Shown one piece after another: positions 18,661-32,000 of a stretch of DNA of 32,000 nucleotides. Position numbers and translations under genes: made by a program. Positions within the stretch are counted from its first letter, which is position 1. Every line of letters starts with the position of its first letter. This DNA comes from Telmatocola sphagniphila (GTDB taxonomy: Bacteria; Planctomycetota; Planctomycetia; Gemmatales; Gemmataceae): positions 5,160,001 through 5,192,000 of the forward strand of contig NZ_CP074694.1 in assembly GCF_018398935.1 (NCBI RefSeq). The letters are read 5' to 3'. The notes under the pieces were generated by a model. The model was not told where the DNA came from. It saw nothing but the letters and a program-made list of their open reading frames with translations, and searched no databases.

Positions 18661-19428
18661 ATGATATCGGCCGGTCGATCTTTCAAGACGAAAGTCATGT
18701 GCATGGATTCCCCCTTTATCACGGCAGCGGAAATTGAATCTGCCAACCTGGAACTGACCGGCCGGAGTGCCGAGGAAGTTCTGCGTTGGGCCGTGGGGCG
18801 TTTTGGCCATAAGTTGATGATGGCCACGGCTTTCGGTGCGGAAGGATGTTGCCTGATTCACATGCTGGCCCAGATCGATCCGACCATTCGCGTGATAAAT
18901 CTGGATACTGGATACCAATTTAAGGAGACCCTGAAGCTCCGGGAACGCTTACTTTATACCTACGGCGTGGCAGTCGAGTTCATCCGGCCCGACACAACGG
19001 TCGAAGAATACGAGAGAATGCACGGCGGGCCGCTCTACGAACATCGTTCGGACCAATGCTGTTTTGACCGAAAAATCGTACCATTGCGTAAGGCGGTCGT
19101 CGGCTATCAGGCGTGGATCAGTTCGATTCGCAAGGATCAGACTGCGGATCGCGCCCGGGCCGATGTCGTGCAGTGGGATCCGAAGTTCGGGGTCGTCAAA
19201 GTGAATCCGATCCTCACTTGGAACTATAAGGACGTCTGGAACTTCATTTACAAAAATAACGTTCCCTACAATCCTCTGCACGATCAGGGTTATCCCAGTA
19301 TCGGATGCTGGCCCTGCACTCAACCGGTGACTGAGGGCGCGGACGAACGGTCTGGGCGCTGGGCCGGGATGAAGAAAAAAGAGTGCGGCCTGCACGTGGT
19401 CGAGTATCAGCAAGGATCGGGAATTTAA
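18661..19428 (+). CDS. cysH: Phosphoadenosine/adenosine 5'-phosphosulfate reductase (Fe-S type assimilatory APS/PAPS reductase)
   Basis: 'MMATAFGAEGCCLIHML', 'SIRKDQTADR', 'KVNPILTWNYKDVWNFI' and 'YNPLHDQGYPSIGCWPCT...ECGLH'. The CC...CxxC cysteines suggest the Fe-S APS-reductase type. Internal ATGs at 18697 and 18703 are alternative starts. Confidence 0.9.
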   Translation: MISAGRSFKTKVMCMDSPFITAAEIESANLELTGRSAEEVLRWAVGRFGHKLMMATAFGAEGCCLIHMLAQIDPTIRVINLDTGYQFKETLKLRERLLYTYGVAVEFIRPDTTVEEYERMHGGPLYEHRSDQCCFDRKIVPLRKAVVGYQAWISSIRKDQTADRARADVVQWDPKFGVVKVNPILTWNYKDVWNFIYKNNVPYNPLHDQGYPSIGCWPCTQPVTEGADERSGRWAGMKKKECGLHVVEYQQGSGI

Positions 19429-19446
19429 TCGAACGAAAGAGTATTC

Positions 19447-19890
19447 ATGCGCGCATCTTTCTTCTCGATGAAAGCCGAATACGCCTGCGAGGCGATGATG
19501 GAGCTGGCGGCGCGGCATCGCGACCCGACCCCCATCCGGCTTAAGACCATCGCCGATGCGCACGGGATCCCCAAACGCTTTCTGGTGCAGATCCTGATTC
19601 AACTGAAAACCGGCGGCCTGGTCGAAAGCACCCGCGGTTCTTCCGGCGGCTATCAGCTGGCCCGCGATCCCGATCAGATTTCGCTGGCCGATATTATCGG
19701 GGTCATTGAGCGGACCGAGCCGGCCGAGAACAGTCTGGACCGAAACCGTTCCGAAAATTCCTGCAAGCGCGTGATCCATTCTCTCTGGAATGAAATCACC
19801 GAAGCGCAGCAGGCCATCCTGGAGCGAACCACCCTGGCGGAATTGATCAGCCGGGCCCGCGCTCAGGATTCCTTGATGTATTCGATTTAA
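19447..19890 (+). CDS. Rrf2-family transcriptional regulator
   Basis: 'KAEYACEAMMELA...PIRLKTIADAHGIPKRFLVQILIQLKTGGLVESTRGSSGGYQLAR' is a classic Rrf2 winged helix. The gene lies 18 nt after cysH and 17 nt before sat. Confidence 0.9.
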   Translation: MRASFFSMKAEYACEAMMELAARHRDPTPIRLKTIADAHGIPKRFLVQILIQLKTGGLVESTRGSSGGYQLARDPDQISLADIIGVIERTEPAENSLDRNRSENSCKRVIHSLWNEITEAQQAILERTTLAELISRARAQDSLMYSI

Positions 19891-19907
19891 CCGAAGAGGA
19901 GTGTTGA

Positions 19908-21197
19908 ATGCCGGATTTGATAGCGCCCCACGGGGGATTGAGCAAACCCATCGATCGCCGATTGACCAACCCCGAATGCCCGTATAAGGAATGGGCCGCC
20001 GGGACCGAGGCGCAATCCCTGAAGTTGAACGGCAGCACTCTGCCGACACTTAAAGTCAGCGATGCCGATCTTTCCACGCTCTATCGCATTGCCGACGGCG
20101 GACTCTCGCCGCTGACCGGTTCGATGACTTCCGAGGAATACAATCGCGTTCTCGAAGAAGAGGTGATCGTTCGCCAGGGCAAGAAATATGCCTGGACGAT
20201 TCCCCTCGCTTTCCCGGCCACCGAAGAAGAAGCCAAGAGTCTGACCCCCGGCAAACCAGCCGCTCTCCTCAACAAAGAGGGCAAACTGGTCGGCCTGATT
20301 GAAGTTAAAGAAGTCTATCCCTGGGACAAGAAGAAATATAACGCTTCGGTTTATGCCACTGAGCGGAACGATCATCCTGGCGCCCGCATCGCCAATGAAG
20401 ATCTCCGCACTTTCTTAGTCGGCGGCGATATCTGGGCCTATCCGCAACCCAAGCATCCTGCTTACGGAGACGTGGTTCTCTCTCCGGAAGAGACGCGCAA
20501 ACTGTTCTCGGCCAAGGGTTGGGAGCGGGTGGTCGCTTTCCAGACCCGCAATCCCCTGCATCGGGCGCACGAATACGCGCTGGTCGTCGGCGCGGAAACG
20601 CTGGCTCGATTGGGCCACAAGGCCGGGGCCGTGTTGAATCCGCTGATCGGCGAAACCAAGGGAGACGATGTGGACGCCGTCACGCGCATGGCGACTTATC
20701 GCGCTCTGATCGAGCGTAAAGCACTCGGCGAAGGGGATACCGATACGGATCTGTGGAACAAGCTGGGCCGCAAGTTCACCGACAATCTGATTCTGCTCGG
20801 TTTGGATATCAAGATGTTCTATGCCGGGCCGAAAGAGGCGGTGATGCACGGCATCTATCGGCAGAACTTCGGGTTCACCGATATCATTATTGGTCGTAAG
20901 CACGCCGATGCGCCGTACGACGACGGCAAGGATATCTGGGACGGCCTGGCCGCGCAGCGCAAGTTCGACACGCTCAAGGGCGAGCTGTTGATTCAGCCGG
21001 TCAAAGTCGGTTTCGCGGCGTTCTTCGAGGAGTTGGGCCGGGTGGGTCTGGTTGACGAGTACGGCCCAAAGGGCTACAAGACGGTGAGCATCAGCGGCCG
21101 GGATCTGCGGGAGCAACTCCGCGGCGGCAAGCTGCCCGACCCGCGCATCATGCGTCCCGAAACGGCCCAGATTCTGATTGAGAGGATGAAGGGGTGA
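19908..21197 (+). CDS. sat: Sulfate adenylyltransferase (ATP sulfurylase)
   Basis: 'VVAFQTRNPLHRAHE' and 'GPKEAVMHGIYRQNFGFTDIIIGRKHAD', with a GAGGAG RBS 7 nt upstream. The C-terminus is '...GKLPDPRIMRPETAQILIERMKG'. Confidence 0.93.
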   Translation: MPDLIAPHGGLSKPIDRRLTNPECPYKEWAAGTEAQSLKLNGSTLPTLKVSDADLSTLYRIADGGLSPLTGSMTSEEYNRVLEEEVIVRQGKKYAWTIPLAFPATEEEAKSLTPGKPAALLNKEGKLVGLIEVKEVYPWDKKKYNASVYATERNDHPGARIANEDLRTFLVGGDIWAYPQPKHPAYGDVVLSPEETRKLFSAKGWERVVAFQTRNPLHRAHEYALVVGAETLARLGHKAGAVLNPLIGETKGDDVDAVTRMATYRALIERKALGEGDTDTDLWNKLGRKFTDNLILLGLDIKMFYAGPKEAVMHGIYRQNFGFTDIIIGRKHADAPYDDGKDIWDGLAAQRKFDTLKGELLIQPVKVGFAAFFEELGRVGLVDEYGPKGYKTVSISGRDLREQLRGGKLPDPRIMRPETAQILIERMKG

Positions 21198-21275
21198 GGC
21201 TCAAATCCTGTCGCCCAACAGTTTTGAAAATGTGGGCCCCTCGACAAGTAGGTCGAAGGGCATTATTGTTTTGGG
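21099..21275 (+). repeat. R1: resident sat 3' end + GTTCAAATCC-type core + terminator (first of five direct copies)
   Basis: Aligned by eye to 22278-22428 and 24228-24432. The core 'CTCAAATCCTGTCGCCC' is at 21200-21216. Confidence 0.85.
21236..21273 (+). terminator. Intrinsic terminator of sat (R1 version)
   Basis: GCCCCTCGAC-aagtag-GTCGAAGGGC forms a 10-bp stem with one mismatch, followed by ATTATTGTTTT. Confidence 0.6.
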
Positions 21276-21453
21276 GACTGGAGTTACAGACTGACGAAGT
21301 TCCAGAATAAAGCTCTCTAAATTTCAAGTTCAAAATTTTGTAAGTGAATTCCATCCGCCGAACACGCCGCCCCCCTTTCGCGCAGCATATTGAGCCCCGT
21401 GCGGTTATAATTATTGAGGTATCCACAACTCAACGTTGCAGAGGATTCAACTA

Positions 21454-21918
21454 ATGATCCCATCTCTACGGGAAGAGTTGGAGAAGGTCGCGAACCCCGA
21501 TGTGGCTGAGGCAATAACGAAGACAACCAGTCGGCTTGCCAATGAGCTTGCCGGGGTTCTCGGTACTATCTCCTCGAAGGAACAGACCACTTTACTTCTT
21601 CTCATCAATCAGACAATGCTTGAAGAGATCGAATCTCGGAACAAGAAACTGGAACGTCGTCGTTTAAGTGAAATGAAAGATGAAAGTGCTCTATCCCACC
21701 AACTCAATATTTCGAGCGGCTTAGGGGAAAAGCTGAAGATTACCGACCCCGATTTGTTGCCGACCTGTGAAGTACCTTCCGAAGTGCTGGAACTTGCAAA
21801 GAGAGAATTTAATGACCAGGAAACTACTGCCGAAATCCGCCGAATTAGGGAATCAGGTGGCCTCTCTTTCAACGACTTTTTTGAAGAACTCGAACGTCTA
21901 GCCCGATCCAACAAATAA
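21454..21918 (+). CDS. Hypothetical acidic coiled-coil protein in the antitoxin position upstream of the ParE/RelE-like gene
   Basis: The ORF ends 6 nt before the next gene. ATG at 21454 ('MIPSLREELEK...') is more plausible than the TTG at 21436. No DNA-binding motif recognised. Confidence 0.55.
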   Translation: MIPSLREELEKVANPDVAEAITKTTSRLANELAGVLGTISSKEQTTLLLLINQTMLEEIESRNKKLERRRLSEMKDESALSHQLNISSGLGEKLKITDPDLLPTCEVPSEVLELAKREFNDQETTAEIRRIRESGGLSFNDFFEELERLARSNK

Positions 21919-21924
21919 ACGCCC

Positions 21925-22230
21925 ATGGATGACTTAGTGCCCTACGAAGTTTCCTACTCCGAAAGAGTTCGGGAAGAACTTCGTGCCCTTATTGCCCGTG
22001 CAAAAAACGCTGGACTTGTCGATGAAGTTTTAAGTGCGCTTAAAGGTATTGAAAAACGATTGCGTCTTTATCCGCAGTTTGGTCAACCTTTGTGGAATCT
22101 TTCTGTCGAACCTGCTCAAATGTGGATGGGCGTAGTAGCTCCCCTAGTCATCCAGTATGTTCTGGATGAATCTCGTCGACAAGTAATGGTTGTTCATCCT
22201 ATCACTCCCTTGCGCAACTCGGGTTTATAA
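21925..22230 (+). CDS. ParE/RelE-superfamily toxin-like protein (101 aa)
   Basis: The size and pattern 'YEVSYSERVREELRAL...IEKRLRLYPQFGQPL...VIQYVLDESRRQVMVVHPI' match the RelE/ParE layout: Y-x-V-x-Y-S start, a mid 'P..G..L', and a C-terminal 'Y.vde....v.v..i'. Confidence 0.6.
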   Translation: MDDLVPYEVSYSERVREELRALIARAKNAGLVDEVLSALKGIEKRLRLYPQFGQPLWNLSVEPAQMWMGVVAPLVIQYVLDESRRQVMVVHPITPLRNSGL

Positions 22231-22277
22231 AGCCTAACGCATAGATTCAATTTGATCATTTGCAAAATTCAAGCTTT

Positions 22278-22428
22278 GGCGGCAAGCTGCCCGATCCGCG
22301 GATCATGCGGCCCGAAACGGCCCAGATTCTGATCGAGCGGATGAAGGGGTAAGGGTTCAAATCCTGTCGCCCAACATTTTTGAAAAGTGGGCCCTTCCGC
22401 GAGAACGTCGAAGGGCATTAGCATTGTT
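22278..22428 (+). repeat. R2: orphan copy of sat codons GGKLPDPRIMRPETAQILIERMKG* + core + terminator-like hairpin
   Basis: Over 75 nt of coding tail I count 6 differences from R1 (gac/gat, cgc/cgg, cgt/cgg, att/atc, agg/cgg, tga/taa). All are synonymous or stop-for-stop. The core 'GTTCAAATCCTGTCGCCC' is at 22355-22372. The hairpin is GCCCTTC...GAAGGGC. Confidence 0.85.
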
Positions 22429-22480
22429 GGACCAGAGTGCATCTTCGATTACGATAGTACCAAAATAAATCGGAGGCCTT

Positions 22481-23152
22481 TTAGACGAGCAGGGTGCGTC
22501 GTTGCCAGTTCACTAAAACGCGAATTGTGCACCCGAGTGTTCCATTCCAGTCATAGCCAAAGCCTTCGTCTTGCAGGCATTCGCAGATCTCGCGAGCGAT
22601 GCCGAGTGCATTCTCGTTGTAGACTTCTTGAGCGACTTCGGACCCGTCTGCCGAGAGCCAACCGTAACCCATGTAGACTGACAGTTTCGTGTTTTCCGAC
22701 AACTTTTCGGCCATATTCTGATCGATGAAAAATGCATAGCCACGAATCCGGTCCTGGAACCCGGGATGACGATGATCGATTACATCGATCCGATTTGAAA
22801 ATTCGCCCAGTGTGCATGAGTCGCAGCAGGGTGAAACTTGCCACAGTAAAATGCCTCGTTCGCGTAAGGTCGCTTCCACTCGATCCAGACGATCGCAGTC
22901 TGTCTCTGAAGGCCATAAGGACTGTTCAGCCGCGAGCTGGGCTTCGGCCCGTTTGAGCTCATTGGCCGCAAATAGAATGAAAGAATCTTGTTCGTTATCA
23001 GGACATTGGTCCTGGAGGTATATATCGCGGCATGCTTCAAGAATGGCATTGTGGTCGTACCTCGACAGCCGAACTTCACCAAGAACGAACCACCGAAGCG
23101 TTGCCCGCATATCGTCGCGCGCCTTGTCGTTCCATTCGTCCTTCTGACTCAT
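22481..23152 (-). CDS. Hypothetical protein, immunity-protein-like (possibly DUF6891-like)
   Basis: 223-aa ORF. The pattern 'RGILLWQVSPCCDSCTLGEF...GYAFFIDQNMAEKL...LSVYMGYG...IAREICECLQDEGFGYDWNGTLGCTIRVLVNWQRR' resembles, from memory only, the DUF6891 family. Confidence 0.6.
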   Translation of the reverse strand: MSQKDEWNDKARDDMRATLRWFVLGEVRLSRYDHNAILEACRDIYLQDQCPDNEQDSFILFAANELKRAEAQLAAEQSLWPSETDCDRLDRVEATLRERGILLWQVSPCCDSCTLGEFSNRIDVIDHRHPGFQDRIRGYAFFIDQNMAEKLSENTKLSVYMGYGWLSADGSEVAQEVYNENALGIAREICECLQDEGFGYDWNGTLGCTIRVLVNWQRRTLLV

Positions 23153-23434
23153 CCTCGGTTCTCCTATTGCACTTCTGCCCTGTGGATTAAAGTCTTATAG
23201 AATTTGGTAATCGCTTTAGCGGCACTAAATCGAAAATAGAGTAGCTAAAGGTGTGTAGGAAACGAACTCCTTCTCACTGGCCGGACTTTGATTTTTCTAC
23301 TCTCAAGTTTGTCTCGTTCACCCCTATGATCCACCCGACATCCGCACGGCAGCCTTGTTGTTTGTTACGGCGGCATCTATATTCTCCATGTCTTCAATTC
23401 AAAGACACATGAGTCGATCTGCTTGGGGCCCCTG

Positions 23435-24214
23435 ATGGCGCAAGACTTCAACACATTCCTGTTCGGTGATCTCCGCATTGCTACCGCAAGTAGTGGCCGG
23501 AGCGACTATGCCCACACCTTTGGTGGGCCGCACGATCGCAAAGGTACTTCCAGAGAGGACTGCAACGGGATACTTATCCATCTTTTACATCGCTTTGATC
23601 TGACCGATCCCGCAATTCCGATTCGCATCCCCGGTGTTCGCTGGCTGCCGCTGTATTACTGCTTCGACTTCCGTGCCAACGACCTGGGCTATCGGCTGAT
23701 CTCCGATGATCAATTAGTGACCTACTTTCCCGATGACGACCCGAACGTTTCGAAGGAAGAGTCGTGGCCCGACGACGAGGGGTATCCTTTAGAATTTCCG
23801 AAGTCCAGCATCAAAATCGCGGCCTACTCTTATAACCCGACTAAATTAAATGACGCTTACCAGTGGGCTGGCATTTTCGGTATCGGGAATCTCTCGAAAC
23901 GAGACCAATTAGCCGCGAAGAAACGTGTTGCCAAATGGATTGACAGCCTGGGATTTGAGGCCCCACCCGAGACGGACGAAGAATTCGACGAAGCATTTTC
24001 CAGTCCGTTTGCACAGGGCAAGCCAGATAGTCCCTGCTTGAATCCTGATTGCTCCAATTGGAAGAAAAAAGGTCAGTTGACTACGATTGCTCTGATGCCT
24101 GCGGAACCGGTCAAAGGCATCCGCACTTTCGGCCGTATGGGCGCTGGTGTGCAGTTGATTGTCCGCATGTGCCCTAGATGCTACACGATTCGAGTCAGCA
24201 ATCAGTGCGACTGA
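23435..24214 (+). CDS. Hypothetical protein with C-terminal Cys4 zinc-ribbon-like motif
   Basis: ATG at 23435 ('MAQDFNTF...'). 'CLNPDCSNW' and 'CPRCYT' lie ~45 aa apart near the C-terminus. The stop at 24214 lies 14 nt before R3. Confidence 0.6.
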   Translation: MAQDFNTFLFGDLRIATASSGRSDYAHTFGGPHDRKGTSREDCNGILIHLLHRFDLTDPAIPIRIPGVRWLPLYYCFDFRANDLGYRLISDDQLVTYFPDDDPNVSKEESWPDDEGYPLEFPKSSIKIAAYSYNPTKLNDAYQWAGIFGIGNLSKRDQLAAKKRVAKWIDSLGFEAPPETDEEFDEAFSSPFAQGKPDSPCLNPDCSNWKKKGQLTTIALMPAEPVKGIRTFGRMGAGVQLIVRMCPRCYTIRVSNQCD

Positions 24215-24227
24215 GTGACAGTTGTTG

Positions 24228-24432
24228 CGGGATCTGCGGGAGCAACTCCGCGGCGGCAAGCTGCCCGATCTGCGCATCATGCAGCCCGAAACGGCCCAGA
24301 TTTTGATCGAGCGGATGAGGGGATAAGGGTTAGTTATTTGTGTTTGGGCCGGCAGGGGTTCAAATCCCGCCGCCCCGACTTGACGAGACGAGAAGCCCTT
24401 CGGCGAGAACGTCGAAGGGCTTTTCTTGTTTG
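24228..24432 (+). repeat. R3: orphan, longer copy of the sat tail (DLREQLRGGKLPDLRIMQPETAQILIERMRG*) + ~28-nt insertion + core + best terminator
   Basis: Over 96 nt of coding tail I count 9 differences from R1, three of them non-synonymous (P>L, R>Q, K>R). There is no start codon, and an in-frame TGA lies at 24216. After the stop (24324-24326) comes 'GGGTTA', then extra sequence, then the core 'GTTCAAATCCCGCCGCCCC' at 24358-24376. Confidence 0.85.
24394..24432 (+). terminator. Intrinsic terminator (R3 version)
   Basis: AGCCCTTCG-gcgagaacgt-CGAAGGGCT forms a perfect 9-bp stem followed by TTTCTTGTTTG. Confidence 0.6.
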
Positions 24433-24540
24433 TTGCCAATGCTTTGCGCCGACCTGCGGTTCCGCTCATCCGGTCCAAAACGCCAAGCAACATCGGCTGA
24501 GCAGCCAGTGCAATGGCTGCAAGTCATTGGCTCAAAAGCG

Positions 24541-24575
24541 GTTGCAGAGTTCAAATCCAGCCGCCAGTTTCACTG
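24541..24575 (+). repeat. R4: degenerate fourth copy of the core only
   Basis: 'GCAGAGTTCAAATCCAGCCGCC' compares with the R3 sequence 'GCAGGGGTTCAAATCCCGCCGCC'. Upstream similarity to the sat tail is weak ('AGCGG.TG.AG'). Confidence 0.4.
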
Positions 24576-24665
24576 TATTCGCGCCAACTCGTCCGACTGT
24601 CTGTCTGAACCTTCCGATGGCAATCGCTGTCTACAATAGGCCAAGCAATAGCAGGGAGAGCGAAT

Positions 24666-25616
24666 GTGGGAACGAGCGCAGCAGAAAAACGCCAGAAACT
24701 CTTCGAGGTCAACAGCGCCGGCATGGCCGCTCTCGGCATGGGCGAGCCGGACACATTCGTCTGCCCTCTCTGCGTGAAGGTGTTCACGAAGGACGACCTG
24801 AAGCCGATAGGCACCCCGAAGGTGCCGGAGTTTCGGTTGACCCTGGCTCACATTATCCCCGAGGCGCTCGGCGGAAGGCTCTGCACGCTCGCCTGCAAGG
24901 ACTGCAACAACGGCGTGGGAAAGGCACTCGAAGCCGCGCTGAAGGAGCAGTTCGTCGTTGAAGACGCGGTCAAGGGCACAGGCAAGTTGAGGGCGCGACT
25001 CGCCGGCGACTTCGGGAACGTGGGCGTCGAGGTCAGCTTCCCCGGCGACGGCGGCCAGCCCTGGCAACTGGAACCCGTGGCGAGAATCTCCAACCCGGTG
25101 CATGCGGCGTCGCTGGACAAGATGCTGGAGGGTACCGAGGCGAACCCGCAGGCGGGGCCGCGCAGTGAACTGAAGTTCGAGTACAAGCATCAGCCCGGCG
25201 TCGTCGGGGCGGCGCTGTACCACGTCGCCTACCTAATGATGTTCCACTATTTCGGCTATCCGTTCGTCGCGAGCCCGCTCGGGCATCAGCTGCGGGCGCA
25301 GTTCCGCGAGCCCGACAAGGACATCCTTCCCCGGTACTTCCCTGTACCGCCGGAGGACTGGGTCGCGGCCAACGTGGACGCCGCGCGAAAGCACGCCGTT
25401 GTGCTGATTCAGGAGCCGTACATCGGCATCCACATCATGATGCGCTTCCATCCCGACAAGGGGCTGCCCCGTGTTATCGGGGTTGCCCTATCCGACCTGG
25501 ACGGGATGTCGTGGCCGACCGGCCCCGTAGGACTCGTTCGCGGGGCCATCGTCCGCATCAAGACCGATGGGGAGGAACTCCCGCCGTGGGTGCCACGGAC
25601 GCGTGCGGTGGAGTAA
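24666..25616 (+). CDS. HNH-like (HNH_5-type) nuclease-domain protein with an uncharacterised ~200-aa C-terminal domain
   Basis: GTG start preceded by AGGGAGAG. The N-terminal 'CPLC...(24 aa)...LAHIIPEALGG...CKDCNNGVG' matches the CxxC...H-(I/V)-I-P-x-x-L-G-G...CxxCN layout of beta-beta-alpha-Me / HNH_5 nucleases. Confidence 0.65.
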   Translation: MGTSAAEKRQKLFEVNSAGMAALGMGEPDTFVCPLCVKVFTKDDLKPIGTPKVPEFRLTLAHIIPEALGGRLCTLACKDCNNGVGKALEAALKEQFVVEDAVKGTGKLRARLAGDFGNVGVEVSFPGDGGQPWQLEPVARISNPVHAASLDKMLEGTEANPQAGPRSELKFEYKHQPGVVGAALYHVAYLMMFHYFGYPFVASPLGHQLRAQFREPDKDILPRYFPVPPEDWVAANVDAARKHAVVLIQEPYIGIHIMMRFHPDKGLPRVIGVALSDLDGMSWPTGPVGLVRGAIVRIKTDGEELPPWVPRTRAVE

Positions 25617-25650
25617 GTAACAGACGAGATTCAACCTCAAGGGGGTTCCA

Positions 25651-25842
25651 TTGGCACGCATTGTCGCGGACACGAACGTCTTCTACTACAATCTCGGGGC
25701 GGGCAATACCGCGCTCGAACTGGCCGATACCAAAGAGCATTGGCTCCGCATCACCCGGCAGAGTGTCAGTGGTGTCGGACCGACGCGCGGATGCGGGCGA
25801 GTGTCGCGTCGATCGAGCTTGAAGACGACAGGGGAGCGGTAA
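25651..25842 (+). CDS. PIN-like N-terminal fragment (possible 5' part of a frameshifted gene)
   Basis: TTG start 5 nt after AAGGGGG. 'ARIVADTNVFYYNL' resembles the first acidic strand of PIN / PIN-like (DUF4935-type) domains. The ORF stops after 63 codons but overlaps the next long ORF by about 100 nt in another frame. Confidence 0.3.
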   Translation: MARIVADTNVFYYNLGAGNTALELADTKEHWLRITRQSVSGVGPTRGCGRVSRRSSLKTTGER

Positions 25843-25874
25843 GCTTCAGAACGGAAGATGGGGAGCCAAGTCGC

Positions 25875-26930
25875 ATGACGCCGATGTCATATCCGGAACT
25901 CGGAACACGAACGGCGGAGATCCGCCAGCGCCTCGCAGCGGCTGATGCCGTCCTGAATCCAGGCGAAGGCCTGGCGCAGGCGCTGACGCAGGCGGAGGTC
26001 GTCGCTAGAACCAACGGGCCGGTCCGCGGTACTCCTCAGCACGAGTTCCTCGCAAACGCGAGGGCATGCACCGCCATGTGGGACCTTGCGGGGATGCTGC
26101 GCACCTGCGCCACCCGCGCGCTCGACATGACGGCTCACCTGCGGAACATCACCACCGGCACGGTCGATTTCGGGGTGCCGGCCGCGCCCAACTCGCAAAG
26201 TCACTACTTCAAGGATTTCCAGCTTGAGCTGTATGTCGCGGCGCAGTGCATCACGGACAACGTGCCTCACGTCGCGCTGAACCCTGTCCCTAACGCGCCC
26301 GACGGCGACCTCTACCTTGAGACTCTTCGTTGCGAGATCAAGCACCCCAACTCGCTCGGCCAGCTGAGCGACTATCTCAAGAAGTTCAACAAGGCACTTC
26401 AGGACCGTAACCTGTACGGGGTGTTCGTCACCGGCATTGAAGACATGTTCAGCGTGTTCCCGCCCGAGATGTTCCCCGACGACGCGGCGTTCCAGGCATG
26501 GCTCACGCAGAAGCGGCAGGAGGCGGACTTCTACGCGAGGACGTTTTTCCGGATGGCCGCGGGTCGTGACCGTATCCTCGCGACCGTCCAGCTGTGGAGC
26601 TTCTGGTACCAGGCCGGAGGCGCGGTGTCGCTTCACCGCGAAGGAAATGCCATCGTCTTCGACCACCGCGCCGGAATCCCGGCTCAACAGCAGCAGGACG
26701 CAGAGCGGATCGCCCGGGTCTTCAATCCGCACTTCCGCAGATGGACCCAGATCGAGACGGCCGTCCAAAATCTCATCAGCGACAGCGAAAGGACGCGTCT
26801 GCGCGAGTCCCTGCACAAGAAGGCCTACCAGATCTGGCAAGGCGAGGGCGAGCCCAGAGAGGGCCGCGCCCTCGCGAACTGGCTCCAGGCCAAATCCGAC
26901 TACGGCTTGGTACTGAACACGACGATCTGA
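25875..26930 (+). CDS. Hypothetical protein with PD-(D/E)xK-like nuclease core and C-terminal DUF2934-like motif
   Basis: The helix 'FQLELYVAAQ', then 'PDGDLYLE' and 'LRCEIKH', fit the E...D...ExK arrangement. The C-terminal 'KKAYQIWQGEGEPREGRALANWLQAKSDYG' is DUF2934-like. The frame is open from 25740 (TTG). ATG at 25875 follows GGGGAG, and ATG at 25791 is also possible. Confidence 0.6.
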   Translation: MTPMSYPELGTRTAEIRQRLAAADAVLNPGEGLAQALTQAEVVARTNGPVRGTPQHEFLANARACTAMWDLAGMLRTCATRALDMTAHLRNITTGTVDFGVPAAPNSQSHYFKDFQLELYVAAQCITDNVPHVALNPVPNAPDGDLYLETLRCEIKHPNSLGQLSDYLKKFNKALQDRNLYGVFVTGIEDMFSVFPPEMFPDDAAFQAWLTQKRQEADFYARTFFRMAAGRDRILATVQLWSFWYQAGGAVSLHREGNAIVFDHRAGIPAQQQQDAERIARVFNPHFRRWTQIETAVQNLISDSERTRLRESLHKKAYQIWQGEGEPREGRALANWLQAKSDYGLVLNTTI

Positions 26931-27196
26931 GCGCCGGACATACCCTCGGCGGCAAGCACTCTGTGCATTGGTCTTATCGATCGAAGCGTTCGCGGCTTTG
27001 CTCCTTGCGCCCGTCGGTGTTCACGACCGAAGCGAGAAACGGCGAGTGGCGAATCGCCCCGGTCACATCGCGTTCTAAGGCTGACCAAACTGGACGCTTT
27101 GGTCGCAACCACTTACTTCATAATGTCTTGTGGTTCTGATCCTTTGTCCGATTTCCGGGGGAAATGCCGCCGAATCCCGGCTTCCCAGCCCCTGAT

Positions 27197-27275
27197 CCCG
27201 GCCAGAAAAAGTTCTAACGGCGTCTTGTCGCCCCGACTATTTTCAGACACAAGCACTTCGCCGACAACTCCAGGT
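27197..27275 (+). repeat. R5: strongly degenerate fifth copy of core + terminator region (right boundary of islet C)
   Basis: 'CCGGCCAG..GTTCTAA..GTCGCCCCGACT..AGAC..AAGC.CTTCG.CGA.AAC' aligns by eye with the R3 sequence 'CCGGCAGGGGTTCAAATCCCGCCGCCCCGACT..AGACGAGAAGCCCTTCGGCGAGAAC' at very roughly 60-65% identity. 'GTTCTGATC' at ~27132 may be a relic of the sat tail 'ATTCTGATC'. Confidence 0.35.
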
Positions 27276-27316
27276 CCAACGCATCCTTCCCTCGGCTCTT
27301 CAAACCAAGCTCTCGC

Positions 27317-27910
27317 TCAACCTTTTTTCCCCTGGCGACTTCCTGAAGCCTTGGCAGCTTTAACCGCCTTTGGAGCGGTTTTGGGACTTGTCCGCTTGCT
27401 GGCTGTGGTCGATCGAATGACCACCGCTCCACGTCCAGTACTCGCGAAGGGCACCGGATTGAGTGTGAGGGCTTGATCGATCAGTCGAGCTACTCCCGGT
27501 TGAGAAAGTGTCGATTTATTTTCCACTTCGATCAGTCGCGTCTGCTTGCCGGATCCCTGCAACAATTTCTCCGGATCGGACAATTCCTTGCCCCGATTGA
27601 AATAGAGTTGAACGCCTTTGGCACTTCCGCGTAAGGCCAACACGCCCTCGTAGCCGCGCTCGTTCGGGGTGTAGCTGATCACGAAGCTGTCGCGATACTC
27701 ATACACCACTTCGATGGCGGTGGGCAGCCGCTTTCGCAGCGCTTTTCGCACGGCTACCAGAAGCGGCAAATGTGCAGGAGCGAACTTATCAACCAGTGTC
27801 AGCAGCTGAGCTTCCGCCGCTTTGCGATCGGCAGTCGATTGCGTCTTTTCCGGGACTTCGGTTTTTGCTTTCACTGATCGGGAGGTGGCTGTTGTTTTCT
27901 TCGTGCTCAT
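27317..27910 (-). CDS. DUF1801 (YdhG-like) domain protein with Lys/Ala-rich tails
   Basis: The central 'LRKRLPTAIEVVYEYRDSFVISY...VLALRGSAKGVQLYFNRGKELSDPEKLLQGSGKQTRLIEV' matches my recollection of DUF1801. Both termini are basic and low-complexity. Confidence 0.6.
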   Translation of the reverse strand: MSTKKTTATSRSVKAKTEVPEKTQSTADRKAAEAQLLTLVDKFAPAHLPLLVAVRKALRKRLPTAIEVVYEYRDSFVISYTPNERGYEGVLALRGSAKGVQLYFNRGKELSDPEKLLQGSGKQTRLIEVENKSTLSQPGVARLIDQALTLNPVPFASTGRGAVVIRSTTASKRTSPKTAPKAVKAAKASGSRQGKKG

Positions 27911-28085
27911 AAAAAACCTTGCAGATCGGATCAGGAAGGTACAGAAGTATCGTTTTTCCTTTTTTGTAAGAAGGGACCGACTTTTTTAATAGCGAAATTT
28001 ACTCGAACCGCACCGGCATGATAGTTGCCCAAAGCACCTCCGGATTTTCAAGGAATTTATGAATCTTCAATTCGAAGGAGCAACA

Positions 28086-28790
28086 ATGGCCGGAACAAAC
28101 AGGATACTCATCATCGTTACGAATGTCGGGGAATACGAAAAAGTCGGCTTTCGAACTGGGCTTTGGCTGGGAGAGATGACGCATTTTTGGGATGTCGCGG
28201 AGCAGGCGGGCTATCGAATGGATATCGCTAGTCCTTTGGGCGGTTTCATTCCCATCGATCCCGAAAGCCTCGCTCACGATGTGCTTAAGATGGGCGAGAC
28301 CGACAAACGATATATGGATCGCGCTTTCATGGATCAATTGAAGAACACCCGGAAAGTCGCCGAGGTCGATGCGGCCAACTACGACGCGATTTATATGACC
28401 GGCGGCCATGGTGTCTGTTTCGATTTCAATAAGAGCACCGATCTTGCGAAGTTGACCGCCGAGTTCTACGAGTCCGGCAAGATTGTGTCGGCCGTGTGTC
28501 ATGGCCCTGCGGGTCTTTTGGAAGTGAAGCTCAGTACTGGCGACTATCTGATTGCCGGGAAGCAGGTGACCGGTTTCTCCTGGAATGAAGAAATCAAAGC
28601 GGGTCGGGAAGCAGCGGTGCCCTACAACCTCGAGGAGCAACTGCAAAAGCGGGGCGCCAAGTACGGCAAGGCCTGGATGGCGTTCGCCTCGCATATTGTC
28701 GAAGATGGTCGGCTGATCACCGGCCAGAACCCCGCCAGTGCGGAAGGGGTGGGCAAGGCCGTCGTAAAACAGCTTCGAAAAGCCAAATAA
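28086..28790 (+). CDS. DJ-1/PfpI-family type 1 glutamine amidotransferase-like protein
   Basis: ATG at 28086 follows GAAGGAG. Motifs are 'ILIIVTN', 'YDAIYMTGGHG', the nucleophile elbow 'SAVCHGPAGLL' and 'DGRLITGQNPAS'. Confidence 0.9.
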   Translation: MAGTNRILIIVTNVGEYEKVGFRTGLWLGEMTHFWDVAEQAGYRMDIASPLGGFIPIDPESLAHDVLKMGETDKRYMDRAFMDQLKNTRKVAEVDAANYDAIYMTGGHGVCFDFNKSTDLAKLTAEFYESGKIVSAVCHGPAGLLEVKLSTGDYLIAGKQVTGFSWNEEIKAGREAAVPYNLEEQLQKRGAKYGKAWMAFASHIVEDGRLITGQNPASAEGVGKAVVKQLRKAK

Positions 28791-28977
28791 TTCGAGAATT
28801 GTTTGACTGTAAACTCCGGTCTTCATTTCGAGCCGGGGTTTATGGAACAAGATTTCGTTTCAGTAAATTCTTTCCCTTTCGGATATTAGAATCCCTTCCG
28901 CTATGCATTTTTGTGGCCATTTCCGCCCTTGTAGTCTTTGATAATAGCAGACCATACAAATGCGAAAGGACGGGCAG

Positions 28978-29511
28978 ATGACGGACGAAATTCAAGAGTA
29001 CGCGTACCGGCCCAAATTCAAGACGATACTAATCATGCTGATCCTAGGTGCGCTTGGTGCCATCTTCGCGTCTTCGAAGGCCGTTCATAACAATCGCAGG
29101 CTTATTATTTTTCGTATCATCGAACTCGACCCATCGGAGGCGAGTATTTTTTATTGGATTTTAGCCGCTTTCTGCGCCGCGATAGTCTTAACCTCCCTAG
29201 CGCTCACGTACCATCGAATGACCTTCCATCAGCGCGTGGTCATCGGCCCGCAGTCGATAATCGTTCCGGCCTCGCGCTGGTCGCACGAAGAAAAGGAAAT
29301 CGAATATCGCAATATCATCAATCTTTCGCGGTCGGAGATTAACAAACTGCTGATTATCTACATAATGCATACTGGCGGTAAAAACCATATTAATGCTGAT
29401 TTTATGCCATCCAAAGCGGCCTATGAAGAGTGTTGCGAATTAATAACCTCTCGGGTCCGAGCATCTCGCGAATCGCAACATCCGAACGCTTCGGATTCAA
29501 CAGTTGAATAG
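28978..29511 (+). CDS. Hypothetical membrane protein (two TM helices plus a soluble C-terminal domain)
   Basis: AAGGA RBS before ATG at 28978. The TM segments are 'ILIMLILGALGAIFA' and 'IFYWILAAFCAAIVLTSLALTY'. The gene is AT-richer than the core genes. Confidence 0.55.
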   Translation: MTDEIQEYAYRPKFKTILIMLILGALGAIFASSKAVHNNRRLIIFRIIELDPSEASIFYWILAAFCAAIVLTSLALTYHRMTFHQRVVIGPQSIIVPASRWSHEEKEIEYRNIINLSRSEINKLLIIYIMHTGGKNHINADFMPSKAAYEECCELITSRVRASRESQHPNASDSTVE

Positions 29512-29527
29512 CGTTAAATCTAGGTGA

Positions 29528-29891
29528 ATGCCTGCCATTGTAACATTCAGGAATCTCCTCTGGAAAAGGGGGAACAACCAGGAGTCCCGCGAGGAGTGTG
29601 CCACGCTGTGCTTGAGTAGCTTCTTGAATTTTTGCCTGCACAAGTCCGTTCTTTGACATTATCTGCATGGTCTGCACGAAAGCCTGCAAGCTCTGCGGCG
29701 ATTAGTGGGAACACCAAAGAGATCCGATTATGAAGCAGTGTGCTAAAGAGTGCCGTAAATGCGACAAGGCCTGCCGGGAGATATTAAAGCATACGGGAAA
29801 TGAGAGCGGGTATTCCGTGCGAAGCTGGTTGAAGAAGATTTTAGCGGAAGTGGACTGGGACATTTTTCGCAATTCCGATCGGAATCAATAG
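29528..29891 (+). pseudogene. Decayed four-helix-bundle Cys-rich (DUF326-type) copper-binding protein gene
   Basis: Frame A (29528-29653) reads '...SREECATLCLSSFLNFC...' and stops at 29654-29656. Frame B (29628-29702) reads 'ACTSPFFDIICMVCTKACKLCGD', then an in-frame TAG (29703-29705), then 'WEHQRDPIMKQCAKECRKCDKACREILKH...' up to the stop at 29889-29891. The C-x3-C-x3-C spacing is DUF326-like. There is one frameshift plus one premature stop. Confidence 0.5.
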
Positions 29892-29990
29892 GTCGGGAAT
29901 TGACGGAAGAAAAACTTGGCATCCAGTTTCAACGAATAATGAACGAAAGAACTGCTTGATTTTAGCTTTTTTCTGATACGTCGAAGGACT

Positions 29991-30470
29991 TTATTTCTCA
30001 AAACTTACCCAACTCTCGGGAAGCCATGACAGGAAATTCTGAAGACGGGCCGCAGCTTCCTTTATGCTCATGTTTTCCGCTGAGGAATCGTCTTCGTGTG
30101 CCCAACGATTGCGTACCCTTCGAACCGCCTGAGCATTAGCTCGGATCGACGCCGAAATTCCCTGCCCTCTCCGGCCACCGATCGAATCGATCAACACGGC
30201 TGCGTCTTCGCGACGGGTCGAGTCGTTATGTCTGGCCCGGTCGAATGACCTCAGACCAGCTTCAAACGCTGCGAACAATCTTACGAGGTAAGTGCCTTCG
30301 AGGTTTTCGTAGGCAGTCCGAAGGCTCGAGCGGACGGACTCGCTCTCAACGAGAATAGATGGATTTTTGGCAACTTCGTTCAGAAGGCGGTCCACCGCGA
30401 ATTGGGCAGCTCTGTATTCGCGCTCGACCTCCTTGAGATGTTCGTGCCAGTCAAACCGAAGGTGTGGCAT
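29991..30470 (-). CDS. HEPN-domain protein (R-x4-H motif, Swt1-like)
   Basis: 'AQAVRRVRNRWAHEDD' contains the RNxxxH HEPN signature within a predicted all-helical ~159-aa protein. The ATG at 30470 overlaps the upstream gene by 20 nt. The track start at 30551 is probably an over-extension. Confidence 0.65.
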   Translation of the reverse strand: MPHLRFDWHEHLKEVEREYRAAQFAVDRLLNEVAKNPSILVESESVRSSLRTAYENLEGTYLVRLFAAFEAGLRSFDRARHNDSTRREDAAVLIDSIGGRRGQGISASIRANAQAVRRVRNRWAHEDDSSAENMSIKEAAARLQNFLSWLPESWVSFEK

Positions 30471-30870
30471 GGGCGGCGATGGAGTCGAGGACGCGGACCA
30501 GAGATTTCTCATCCAAAGAAAGAGTGTCGGGTTCGTTGAAAGACTCAGCAAGCGTATCGTCCGAGAAGGAGTAATGGATCATCCATTGATTTTCGCGGAA
30601 ATACAAACTGGCCAAGTCTTCGTAGGTCGGCATCAAATAAAGGTCGACTGCTGCATCAGCTCCCGGGACGTCATACGCGACCGGGTCGAGCAGCACGCGG
30701 GTCGGACCCTTTTGCAGATAGAGTGCGGAGATTTCAAAAATGGAACGATCTGATGCCCGCATTCGCTTGGGATAAAGCTTTGTCGTCCAACCGACGGGCT
30801 CGGCCCAGGTTTTCACGTTCTCAATAAGATCGTCTACGAGCCGTATAAATTGAGTCTGCGTATTCGACAT
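30451..30870 (-). CDS. Hypothetical 139-aa protein, upstream partner of the HEPN gene
   Basis: GGAGAG RBS 6 nt before the ATG at 30870. No MNT/nucleotidyltransferase or HTH motif recognised. The gene is translationally coupled to the HEPN gene by overlap. Confidence 0.65.
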   Translation of the reverse strand: MSNTQTQFIRLVDDLIENVKTWAEPVGWTTKLYPKRMRASDRSIFEISALYLQKGPTRVLLDPVAYDVPGADAAVDLYLMPTYEDLASLYFRENQWMIHYSFSDDTLAESFNEPDTLSLDEKSLVRVLDSIAAHATPSV

Positions 30871-31067
30871 GGGCGCTCTCCGATAATTCCCAAGGGCACA
30901 ATATACTTTAATAATTATATCAAGCCTTAGCCTGAGACGCGTCTGGAGAGTCTTCTGAGCTCCAAAATTGGCAAGATAGAAGCTTAATAACTTTCCTCGC
31001 CCAGATTACCGAACAGGAACTGGCACCTGCGGCGCCATTCTCTGTACGCTTTTGTTCGTGAAAGTAC

Positions 31068-31391
31068 TCAATCCTTCTTCTTCCCGCCTACGACAATCTT
31101 GGTCACCACTTCCTTGCCGTCCCGCGTGTCCGTGAAGATCGTGGCTTCGACCCCTTCCTTTACCGATTTCAAGCCATCGGGCAGCTCAGGCGTTTTAGCC
31201 CCTTTGCCTTTCTTATGAAAGGTCGCAGTCTTATCGACACTCAGAACCTTCTGCTTGCCGTCCACGGTGATAGTGATCGTACTGTCTTCACCGTCGCGCT
31301 TGATCTTGCTGATTTTGGAGGTGTACTCCTCCGCCGAGATCAGACTGATGAAGACGAACAGGGCGACAAAAGGGGCCAGCATTCTTCGCAT
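31068..31391 (-). CDS. Small secreted hypothetical protein (107 aa)
   Basis: Signal peptide 'MRRMLAPFVALFVFISLISA', a Lys-rich mature part, and a GGAG-type RBS upstream. Confidence 0.6.
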   Translation of the reverse strand: MRRMLAPFVALFVFISLISAEEYTSKISKIKRDGEDSTITITVDGKQKVLSVDKTATFHKKGKGAKTPELPDGLKSVKEGVEATIFTDTRDGKEVVTKIVVGGKKKD

Positions 31392-31602
31392 CGCAATAAT
31401 CTCCTGATTTCGGCTAAGAACTCGTTAGGGAATTGAACCCGAACCCACCCGGCCGGTTTCGAATACTCGCTTATCCCCACATTCCCAAGAGTATCAAACC
31501 CTATTTTAGCTTAAAAAGCTCATATATTCTTATGTTTGATCTTGCATTAGCTCGAATTGCCCGTTATTCGCAGTAAATTATCCGAATAACTGGAATCGAA
31601 TT

Positions 31603-32000
31603 ATGCCTCGTTCACGAATTTCGATTGCTCTATTGGTGGGACTATTCTCGATTGGTTGTGCCTCGCTGACTTCCACCCCTTTGTCCTCGGAATCTGTCGA
31701 GATTGCACCTCAAGTGCCCCGAGTTGAAGAGTCGGAAACGCAAAATACTTACTGGGGCGGCCTGACGGGGCAACTGAGTCAGGCCGGGCACTGGGTCCAG
31801 TCCAACGTCAGTTTTAATACGGCCCTGATCTATTGCAATAATGGCCAGCACTGGCTGCAGGAAAACGAATCGGTGAAAATCGGCCTCGAATATATGTCTC
31901 AAGCGAAATCGTGGGTCGTTGAAAATGTCTCGGTAAAGACCGTGATGCTTCAGGTCGACAAAGTCGATCGCTGGATGGAAGACAAGGAAACGCTGAAGAA
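31603..32000 (+). CDS. Putative lipoprotein with 20-aa tandem repeats, 3'-partial (runs off the window)
   Basis: The ATG at 31603 opens a frame with no stop to position 32000; it is absent from the ORF track because no stop is reached. The lipobox-like sequence is 'LLVGLFSIGC'. The repeats are 'HWVQSNVSFNTALIYCNNGQ / HWLQENESVKIGLEYMSQAK / SWVVENVSVKTVMLQVDKVD / RWMEDKETLK'. Confidence 0.6.
   Translation, partial: MPRSRISIALLVGLFSIGCASLTSTPLSSESVEIAPQVPRVEESETQNTYWGGLTGQLSQAGHWVQSNVSFNTALIYCNNGQHWLQENESVKIGLEYMSQAKSWVVENVSVKTVMLQVDKVDRWMEDKETLK

Follow-up and report, generated by a model that had tools for sequence, protein, structure and literature searches.

The sat locus and its repeated 3' end

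The window analysed here is a 32,000-nt stretch of the genome of Telmatocola sphagniphila, a peat-bog planctomycete of the family Gemmataceae (assembly GCF_018398935.1, contig NZ_CP074694.1, positions 5,160,001 to 5,192,000), in which sat, the gene for ATP sulfurylase, is followed by an array of partial copies of its own 3' end with different DNA between them (Table 1). The sat product matches the Pfam ATP-sulfurylase domain (2.1e-55) and carries a PUA_2 domain; it is 100% identical to the T. sphagniphila protein KIH39_20740, and the closest other Sat in a search of 5.8 billion proteins is 75% identical. The gene is intact, its reading frame crossing the first repeat to the stop, with a C-terminus that agrees with that of its relatives.

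The last 25–33 codons of sat, along with ~120 nt downstream, are present three times, as blocks R1, R2 and R3, with R1 and R2 flanking islet 1 and R2 and R3 flanking islet 2. Self-BLAST of positions 21060–21330 against the 32-kb window returned two further copies and nothing else: R2 (22278–22420, 88.9% identity over 144 nt, E 1.7e-48) and R3 (24228–24328, 90.1% over 101 nt, E 1.8e-35), the latter with an additional match to its hairpin at 24395–24431. The repeats are 150–240 bp long, and repeat search, MAFFT and BLAST agree that all three are direct and colinear. A preliminary description of this DNA had recognised multiple direct copies of the sat end; the similarity, far beyond chance, bears this out, and its positions for R1–R3 hold except at the right limits, where the blocks run ~50 nt further. 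Measured in sat, the similarity of R2 begins 24 nt later than that of R3 (21123 versus 21099), and a further reach of R3 into sat is marginal (p = 0.06). As had also been noted, the islets differ in base composition, with GC fractions of 0.458, 0.514 and 0.626 for islets 1, 2 and 3, next to 0.588 for sat. The three islets have no sequence in common, and neither an arm-like motif common to the right ends of islets 1 and 2 nor homology past the blocks was found.

The sat tails of R1 and R2 differ at 6 of 75 nt, and all six differences are synonymous or stop-for-stop (random expectation P = 1.4e-4 to 1.7e-4), showing that the two tails diverged under purifying selection. This codon check confirms the earlier count and supports the proposal drawn from it, that R2 evolved as a functional sat tail elsewhere and did not decay in situ. 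For R3, the nine differences in 96 nt reported before become 10 bases at 9 codons in 99 nt relative to R1; three of them are non-synonymous, as had been stated, and all three are private to R3. Most of the tail differences are private to R1, with R2 and R3 having the same state at 4 of 6.

Table 1 Features of the sat array, with positions in the window.
Feature	Position	Strand	Description
sat	19908–21197	+	ATP sulfurylase, 429 aa; functional gene, 3' end repeated downstream
Block R1	21099–21316	+	Functional sat tail 21099–21197; tRNA-Pro T loop/acceptor remnant ~21198–21218; hairpin ~21236–21261; antisense C-terminal recombinase relic 21204–21320
Islet 1	21317–22277	+	Open reading frames 21454–21918 and 21925–22230, no family match
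Block R2	22278–22471	+	sat pseudo-tail 22278–22352 (24 codons + stop); T loop/acceptor remnant; hairpin ~22391–22416; recombinase relic to ~22472
Islet 2	22472–24227	.	DUF6891 gene 22481–23152 (-), Pfam 2.3e-40; 263-aa open reading frame 23423–24214 (+)
Block R3	24228–24470	+	sat pseudo-tail (32 codons + stop, 3 non-synonymous changes); T loop/acceptor 24357–24378; strong hairpin 24390–24425; recombinase relic
R4	24536–24565	+	Variable-loop/T-arm-like piece, no hairpin; nhmmer E 0.01, borderline
Islet 3	24566–27161	+	HNH_5 protein 24666–25616, Pfam 9.7e-9; 396-aa open reading frame 25740–26930
R5	27162–27267	+	Right-end motif of the family (27162 to ~27225) joined to acceptor/spacer/decayed-hairpin remnant (27226–27267)
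DUF1801-like gene	27317–27910	-	Weak Pfam DUF1801 match, 1.4e-3; adjoins unit remnant

Blocks join a sat tail to a tRNA-Pro end and a recombinase relic

Behind each sat tail, the preliminary description had seen a 'GTTCAAATCC...CGCC core' and a 'terminator hairpin', taken together as an attachment core at sat. What was seen is instead the 3' end of a tRNA-Pro gene, overlapped in antisense by the last codons of a gene for a large serine recombinase (LSR), so that each block consists of a sat tail, a tRNA-Pro 3' end (T loop to acceptor) and the last 28–40 LSR codons in antisense. Similarly, the statement that no islet holds a recombinase stands as far as recombinase open reading frames (ORFs) are concerned, but overlooks the LSR relic in every block.

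This identification comes from public contigs, which we scanned with a pattern made from the parts common to R1–R3, TCAAATCCNGNCGCC-N25-46-GTCGAAGGGC. The pattern matched at least 120 metagenome stretches and 5 viral contigs, nearly all with a 61-nt span. In 55 of the 109 units with enough flank, an intact tRNA-Pro lies upstream, with anticodon GGG, TGG or CGG (ARAGORN), and the motif is its 3' end; another 23 of the 109 are T-loop-only. The opposite strand has an ORF that covers the hairpin and the tRNA end, takes its stop codon from the TCA of the T loop and ends in ...LVPTMRKPFDVLAEGLxSxxSRGDxI. It is full-length at 33 loci, where its Resolvase, Recombinase and Zn_ribbon_recom domains mark it as an LSR. 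Across the family (L081–L205, L220 and L221; for example L220:11300-11535, L157 and L102) the protein has ~496 aa, the last ~20 codons are antisense to the tRNA-Pro 3' end, and the KPFDVLAEG codons form the hairpin behind the tRNA. Because the same bases encode the LSR C-terminus, the conservation of hairpin spacing and sequence is largely a protein-coding constraint.

At least 1,500 proteins are homologous to these LSRs at E <= 1e-60, and the named sources are all Planctomycetota. The LSR gene in the genome of an Anatilimnocola floriformis isolate shares 20 nt with tRNA-Pro(CGG), and in another genome, of 7.3 Mb, the LSR gene overlaps tRNA-Pro(TGG) in the same way. Such an overlap of tRNA-Pro and LSR 3' ends is the usual left junction in this family of LSR elements, which sit in tRNA-Pro genes across the Planctomycetota. 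Known phage serine integrases, considered as a reference for the phage attachment site attP, are all <30% identical. Full-text literature searches on serine integrases at tRNA-Pro returned no description of the family, which may hence be undescribed so far. Among the best 120 of the >1,500 homologues, none is an intact family LSR of T. sphagniphila.

Several observations concern the ends of family elements. An ~80-nt motif occurs in 8 other contigs, 1.1–4.5 kb downstream of the unit and on the same strand; it ends in GTCGCCCCGAC, after which the sequence is unrelated. In one contig (L105:1700-3390) an intact tRNA-Pro(GGG), a full-length LSR gene and this motif lie within 1.64 kb, and the contig may hold a minimal element made of the recombinase gene alone. 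Since only the LSR gene separates the motif from the intact tRNA-Pro there, we take the motif as the right end of the family. Also, in 31 of the 109 units (L082, L085, L088, L110, L160, L184 and others) the tRNA-Pro fragment begins sharply in the anticodon loop, and other units begin at the T loop, usually right after GT; probably, either one of these points is the LSR crossover or the tRNA is a target of other integrases as well. Some T-loop-only units (L097, L106, L175, L149/L183, L104, L141, L135, L153) have a conserved sequence ~100 nt upstream of the T loop, ...GTCGGACCGACGCGC...CAAGCGA.G.GTG...GGT, which neither ARAGORN nor Rfam recognises.

The relics in the window

In an nhmmer search, a family profile of 96 units, themselves seeded by the window-derived pattern, matches the window at R3 (E 6.1e-24), R2 (4.2e-18), R1 (9.1e-16), R5 (1.8e-6) and R4 (0.01), and the only other match below E 0.01 is the reverse strand of the palindromic R3 hairpin. 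Profile positions that the pattern left unconstrained (the spacer, the left half of the hairpin and ~30–50 nt beyond) also match the window copies. With scores of 78.5, 59.4 and 51.8 bits for R3, R2 and R1, preservation runs R3 > R2 > R1. The earlier impression that age rises with distance from sat is therefore right in one respect only, how intact the tails are as coding sequence; judged by the family model, R3 is kept best and R1 least well.

In tblastn with 33 family LSRs, the relics appear as the last 20–34 codons at R3, 40 at R1 (45% identity to family LSRs) and 13–28 at R2, and no full-length LSR gene or other recombinase fragment was found in the window. The R3 relic, 85% identical over 20 aa to the LSR of L124, lies in an ORF at 24360–24554 (-) that ends in ...EKPFDVLAEGLLVSSSRGGGI at its stop codon; translated, the window relics end in ...PFDVLAEG...RGGGI. 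The stop of the R1 relic is the complement of TCA at 21201–21203, and the R2 relic is frameshifted by 1 nt. In R1 and R2 the stop codons of the sat tail and the antisense relic are convergent and ~4 nt apart. The R3 hairpin folds at -30 kcal/mol (z -5.2) and is terminator-like by scan, and those of R1 and R2 are weaker (~-15.5 kcal/mol, z ~-1.4 to -1.5); the R1 hairpin has a 10-bp stem with one mismatch and a T-rich tail and is not called by the terminator scan. Folding gave no hairpin in R5.

ARAGORN and Rfam called no intact tRNA-Pro at the array. Two further candidates were rejected: a transfer-messenger RNA or an RNA gene of another kind, for which ARAGORN and Rfam gave no match in the window or at 18 family loci, and remains of the 5' half or anticodon loop of tRNA-Pro, as local alignments upstream of the T loop in R1–R4 scored like shuffled sequence. 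The window copies thus belong to the T-loop-only class of family units.

Downstream of the sat tails, the homology of R1 and R2 stops near 21316 and 22471, at the same point within the recombinase relic, and a 30-nt segment between the sat stop and the T loop that is present in R3 (~24329–24358) is deleted from both. R1 and R2 are therefore copies of one already-truncated block, which was copied as a unit, dead relic included. The relic parts of R1 and R2 differ at p 0.13 and by several indels. Taken with the synonymous-only divergence of the tails, this indicates that both tails long served a working sat in different lineages and were later joined. Additionally, both sides of the relic's known attachment (att) core were duplicated together, and hence that core cannot have made the tail duplications.

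R4 and R5 as parts of a probable family-type element

The preliminary description had counted R4 and R5 as degenerate core-only copies; on closer comparison, neither stands for a further round of accretion. R4 lies ~178 nt after the unit's T loop, and a like piece has the same offset in two other contigs, L092 (1403-1420) and L204 (1704-1722), so that R4 is a conserved part of a composite and not a separate accretion scar. The occurrence of a second T-arm-like piece in three unrelated sequences suggests that all three share a derived form of the element's left end that lacks the integrase.

At R5, positions 27162–27237 match the family right-end motif (E 8.6e-21, with a model built without the window), and 27226–27267 match positions 57–98 of the family model, its spacer/hairpin part (E 1.8e-6). 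The order and strand of the motif relative to the unit are the same as in the 8 other loci. By these matches, R5 is a family right end joined to an older left-end remnant, the junction to be expected if an element reaching from R3 to R5, now without integrase, went into an older relic. Islet 3 thus looks like a family member that lacks the LSR and landed in such a relic. The left-end remnant within R5 is not nearer to R1/R2 than to R3, identities being 0.55–0.70.

The DUF1801-like gene beyond R5 has a homologue, 64% identical, ~190 nt after the unit in L092 (1481-1999), on the opposite strand, and may be old cargo of the LSR element family and not host flank.

The array in independent assemblies and at other sat loci

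Run SRR14506984 supplies three Logan contigs that agree with the window at 100% identity, one spanning 21110–24257 and the others abutting it; islet 2 is spanned, at 100% identity, by Logan contig L208. Metagenome contigs from two JGI samples and one ENA sample agree with the window at ~99% identity, one of them covering 19396–22520 and thus running from sat through R1, islet 1 and R2 into islet 2; islet 1 also lies between R1 and R2 in the metagenome contigs L206, L207 and L217. In these wild strains the changes in the R1 tail are synonymous only, with the exception of one K to R in one contig, and the R2 pseudo-tail has gained D to N and M to L, as expected of a live tail (R1) and a dead one (R2).

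Within the R2 pseudo-tail, positions 22289–22305 carry 5 substitutions in 17 nt in L206, L207 and L217, against 3 in ~960 nt of islet 1; two of the five restore R1/R3 states, and the cluster may be conversion-like or mutational. Low density of single-nucleotide polymorphisms (SNPs) as a sign of recent transfer of islet 1 between strains was considered and dropped, as the density is patchy region-wide, from 0 to 1.6% per stretch.

Of the 80 GTDB sat loci, those that align through the sat C-terminus have neither a second tail nor a T-loop motif 3' of sat, and none has the islet genes; all are <=82% identical in Sat. No sat tail was found beside family units among ~120 examined, same-species contigs excepted, or in viral contigs. 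An integrase-bearing element with a sat tail was likewise not found in the viral contigs, the ~120 family units, the listed LSR homologues or the region right of the window.

A proposed stacked history of the array

With moderate confidence, we read the region 3' of sat as a decayed, multi-layered insertion hotspot, a reading that takes in both the identity of the blocks and the way in which they were stacked. An LSR-type element would have lain directly 3' of sat and then lost its integrase. Lineages would have diverged, each keeping the sat tail and the relic, with the DNA behind the relic becoming different; and twice, a foreign allele made of a sat 3' end, the relic and its own downstream DNA would have recombined in front of the resident copy. 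With each such event the old tail would have moved downstream (R2, then R3), to decay there, and sat would have acquired another in its place, the present one being R1. That the R1 tail is the odd one out fits a last event in which islet 1 arrived with a foreign allele whose tail took the place of the resident one; by the same logic, R2 and islet 2 would have displaced R3 one step earlier. Such a stack, newest next to sat, is the simplest reading of the array. The preliminary description had likewise proposed accretion with tail replacement, which stands, together with a dedicated sat-targeting integrase, which does not follow: with differing left ends, no right-end motif and no integrase accompanied by a sat tail, that enzyme remains an assumption.

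For the recombination step, two routes seem about equally likely. In one, a diverged allele would enter without a dedicated enzyme, crossing over on the left within sat or the block and joining illegitimately on the right, within the tail of the resident sat; the differing left ends, the lack of an islet right-end motif, the lack of an integrase in the window and a further 8.7 kb, and the co-duplication of a functionless relic fit this route. In the other, a recombinase would act in trans on a site in the sat tail, possibly a family member with a shifted target, which fits the repeat architecture, the convergent recombinase relics and the integrase-less mini-elements of the family.

Several points weigh against the stacked history. 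Homologous recombination over ~200 bp at 85–90% identity is inefficient, and an illegitimate joint is needed for the right end of each islet. The synonymous divergence of the tails (6 per ~18 sites) is somewhat above the R1/R2 divergence of the relic, on numbers too small for a clean clock. The history does not account for a T loop 3–34 nt after the sat stop that lacks a tRNA 5' half. The junction classes place the LSR crossover no more precisely than in the T-arm/acceptor region. A donor lineage, an empty site and a differently filled site were all absent from the 80 GTDB loci and the 5.8-billion-protein search; same-species contigs carry the same array architecture, and the next Sat is only 75% identical.

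Possible, yet in our judgement doubtful, is a model in which a recombinase encoded elsewhere targets the 3' end of sat, the attP of each islet carries a replacement tail, and the islets are now mobilisable in trans like cis-mobilizable elements (CIMEs). We hold as equally doubtful a variant in which a descendant of the tRNA-Pro LSR shifted its target ~100 nt into sat and kept the tRNA-like bases as the code of its own C-terminus. The purifying selection on the R2 tail and the LSR 3' relic convergent with sat in every block agree with this model, LSR-less mini-elements with conserved ends occur in the family, and R5 records at least one family-type insertion into an older relic at this very place. 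Moreover, tandem accretion of integrative and conjugative or mobilizable elements (ICEs, IMEs) with CIMEs, by integration, decay and new integration at an att site that holds a gene end, is documented (PMC5704250). However, neither the window nor the 8.7 kb to its right encodes an integrase, no sat tail accompanies the family units or viral contigs searched, the left ends of the blocks lie 24 nt apart, and the islet right ends lack an arm-like motif. The identical LSR truncation of R1 and R2 further means that islet 1 is not an autonomous LSR element that lost its integrase independently. The 150–240-bp repeats are also far above att length, since the att sites of serine recombinases are much shorter.

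More specific forms of the shifted target seem unlikely to us. A branch of the tRNA-Pro LSRs would have moved its landing site to the sat end, with the islets as integrase-less cassettes moved in trans. Just as unlikely is the arrangement that this would imply, in which the recombinase lies elsewhere in Telmatocola or on a helper, the att site is a ~200-bp composite of tail and fossil C-terminus, and the whole works, in Planctomycetota, as a cassette system that resembles CIMEs or a pseudo form of the staphylococcal cassette chromosome (SCC).

Tandem duplications in situ, starting inside sat and followed by replacement or decay of cargo with occasional gene conversion, are improbable. They would account for copies that are direct, colinear and near one another, and for left ends as arbitrary as those of illegitimate joints (21099 versus 21123), and the cluster of 5 SNPs within 17 nt of the wild-strain R2 hints at conversion-like events. 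Against them stand the six of six synonymous differences between the R1 and R2 tails (P ~1.5e-4) beside a relic with 13% divergence and indels, and islets without common sequence and of strongly different GC, which would demand complete replacement of cargo after each duplication.

That several copies of the block are kept because it works in its own right, perhaps as a terminator or a tRNA-like RNA element, is more improbable still. R1–R3 do have hairpins, that of R3 terminator-like, and the R1 hairpin, whose stem is kept despite 5 changes, probably terminates sat; but Rfam and ARAGORN found no RNA gene, the LSR coding frame accounts for hairpin conservation across the family, and the sat pseudo-tails are decaying and without plausible function, with the hairpin lost in R5. 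Mis-assembly can be dismissed: short-read contigs do break inside R1 and R3, but the copies differ at 10–20% of positions, a Logan contig spans R2 and both islets at 100%, and independent Logan and metagenome contigs, the latter from three samples, show the same order from sat through R1 and islet 1 to R2, which settles the concern about an assembly duplication.

Comparison with known systems

The parallel drawn before, with ICESt1/ICESt3 at the fda 3' end of Streptococcus thermophilus and its CIMEs, holds in form only: recombinase-less islets lie in tandem by a protein gene, direct repeats contain the gene end, and the newest copy is at the intact gene. ICESt1 uses a tyrosine integrase and short att identity (tens of bp), whereas the sat repeats have 150–240 bp and include a dead serine recombinase relic and a tRNA-Pro end, their left boundaries are not fixed, and no cognate integrase, excision or conjugation genes are seen at the sat array.

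The composite SCC/SCCmec islands of staphylococci, at the 3' end of rlmH (orfX), are a parallel no more distant than this one, since they too involve the LSR class and leave the gene end functional; as at sat, a conserved protein gene is flanked by cassette arrays that include recombinase-less ones. The Ccr recombinases act on the attachment site attB inside rlmH, with short direct repeats (~15–30 bp). The sat relic, in contrast, comes from another LSR family, documented at tRNA-Pro, the repeat carries the sat tail as an additional passenger, and the window holds no ccr-like gene. For the diversification of SCC, homologous recombination anchored in shared fragments has been proposed (PMC12648241).

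Elements that target tRNA genes resemble the LSR family in that the element supplies the tRNA 3' end, leaving tRNA-end scars and hotspots of serial insertion. Classically, elements that carry such a replacement tRNA 3' end use tyrosine integrases; here the enzyme is an LSR whose last ~20 codons are antisense to the tRNA end, and in the window a protein-gene tail takes the place of the tRNA 5' half. Homology-facilitated illegitimate recombination, or allelic replacement, as described for naturally transformable bacteria, shares with the sat locus an anchor in a conserved gene, an arbitrary other joint, foreign DNA with a diverged allele of the anchor and the lack of any need for a recombinase. 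Its usual outcome is replacement or deletion, however, whereas at sat the resident tail was retained as a duplicate, twice in succession.

To our knowledge, the mobile elements of Planctomycetota are almost uncharted. At the sat locus, a cultured planctomycete from peat has gained foreign DNA repeatedly at a single site, and the tail copies record working gene ends swapped in from other lineages. The locus also led to a phylum-wide LSR family of unusual design, in which the last integrase codons are antisense to the tRNA-Pro 3' end that is restored. The tRNA-Pro end with its KPFDVLAEG hairpin, together with the right-end motif, could serve as an annotation marker for planctomycete islands, and the LSRs are candidate site-specific integrases with a defined natural target for genome engineering. 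If a recombinase moves the sat tails, the locus would represent a new target specificity; if not, it would be a clear case of stacking by anchored recombination.

Islet cargo and neighbouring genes

No recombinase or transfer domain was found in the islet ORFs, and PADLOC matched no defence-system genes in the islets. The HNH protein of islet 3 has only 14 homologues, which lie among toxin-antitoxin, insertion sequence and nuclease genes in unrelated contigs; with no units near these homologues, the idea that islet 3 cargo travels with LSR units was abandoned. A short ORF at 25651–25842 begins MARIVADTNVFYYNL and resembles the N-terminus of a PIN domain. The 396-aa ORF begins within it, in a different frame, and the two could be one frameshifted or fused gene; the short ORF has no Pfam match.

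On the 5' side, sat is preceded by genes for a PAPS reductase and an Rrf2 regulator, and the order PAPS reductase, Rrf2, sat is kept across many Gemmataceae contigs, among which no gene downstream of sat is conserved. Between 27900 and the right end of the window, and in the 8.7 kb beyond it, no further unit, tRNA or integrase was found. Positions 27900–32000 and their continuation in L215:1-8660 have lower GC (~0.50) and hold hypothetical genes followed by a fatty-acid/aryl-polyene-like synthase cluster with FabA, two ketoacyl synthases and an acyl carrier protein.

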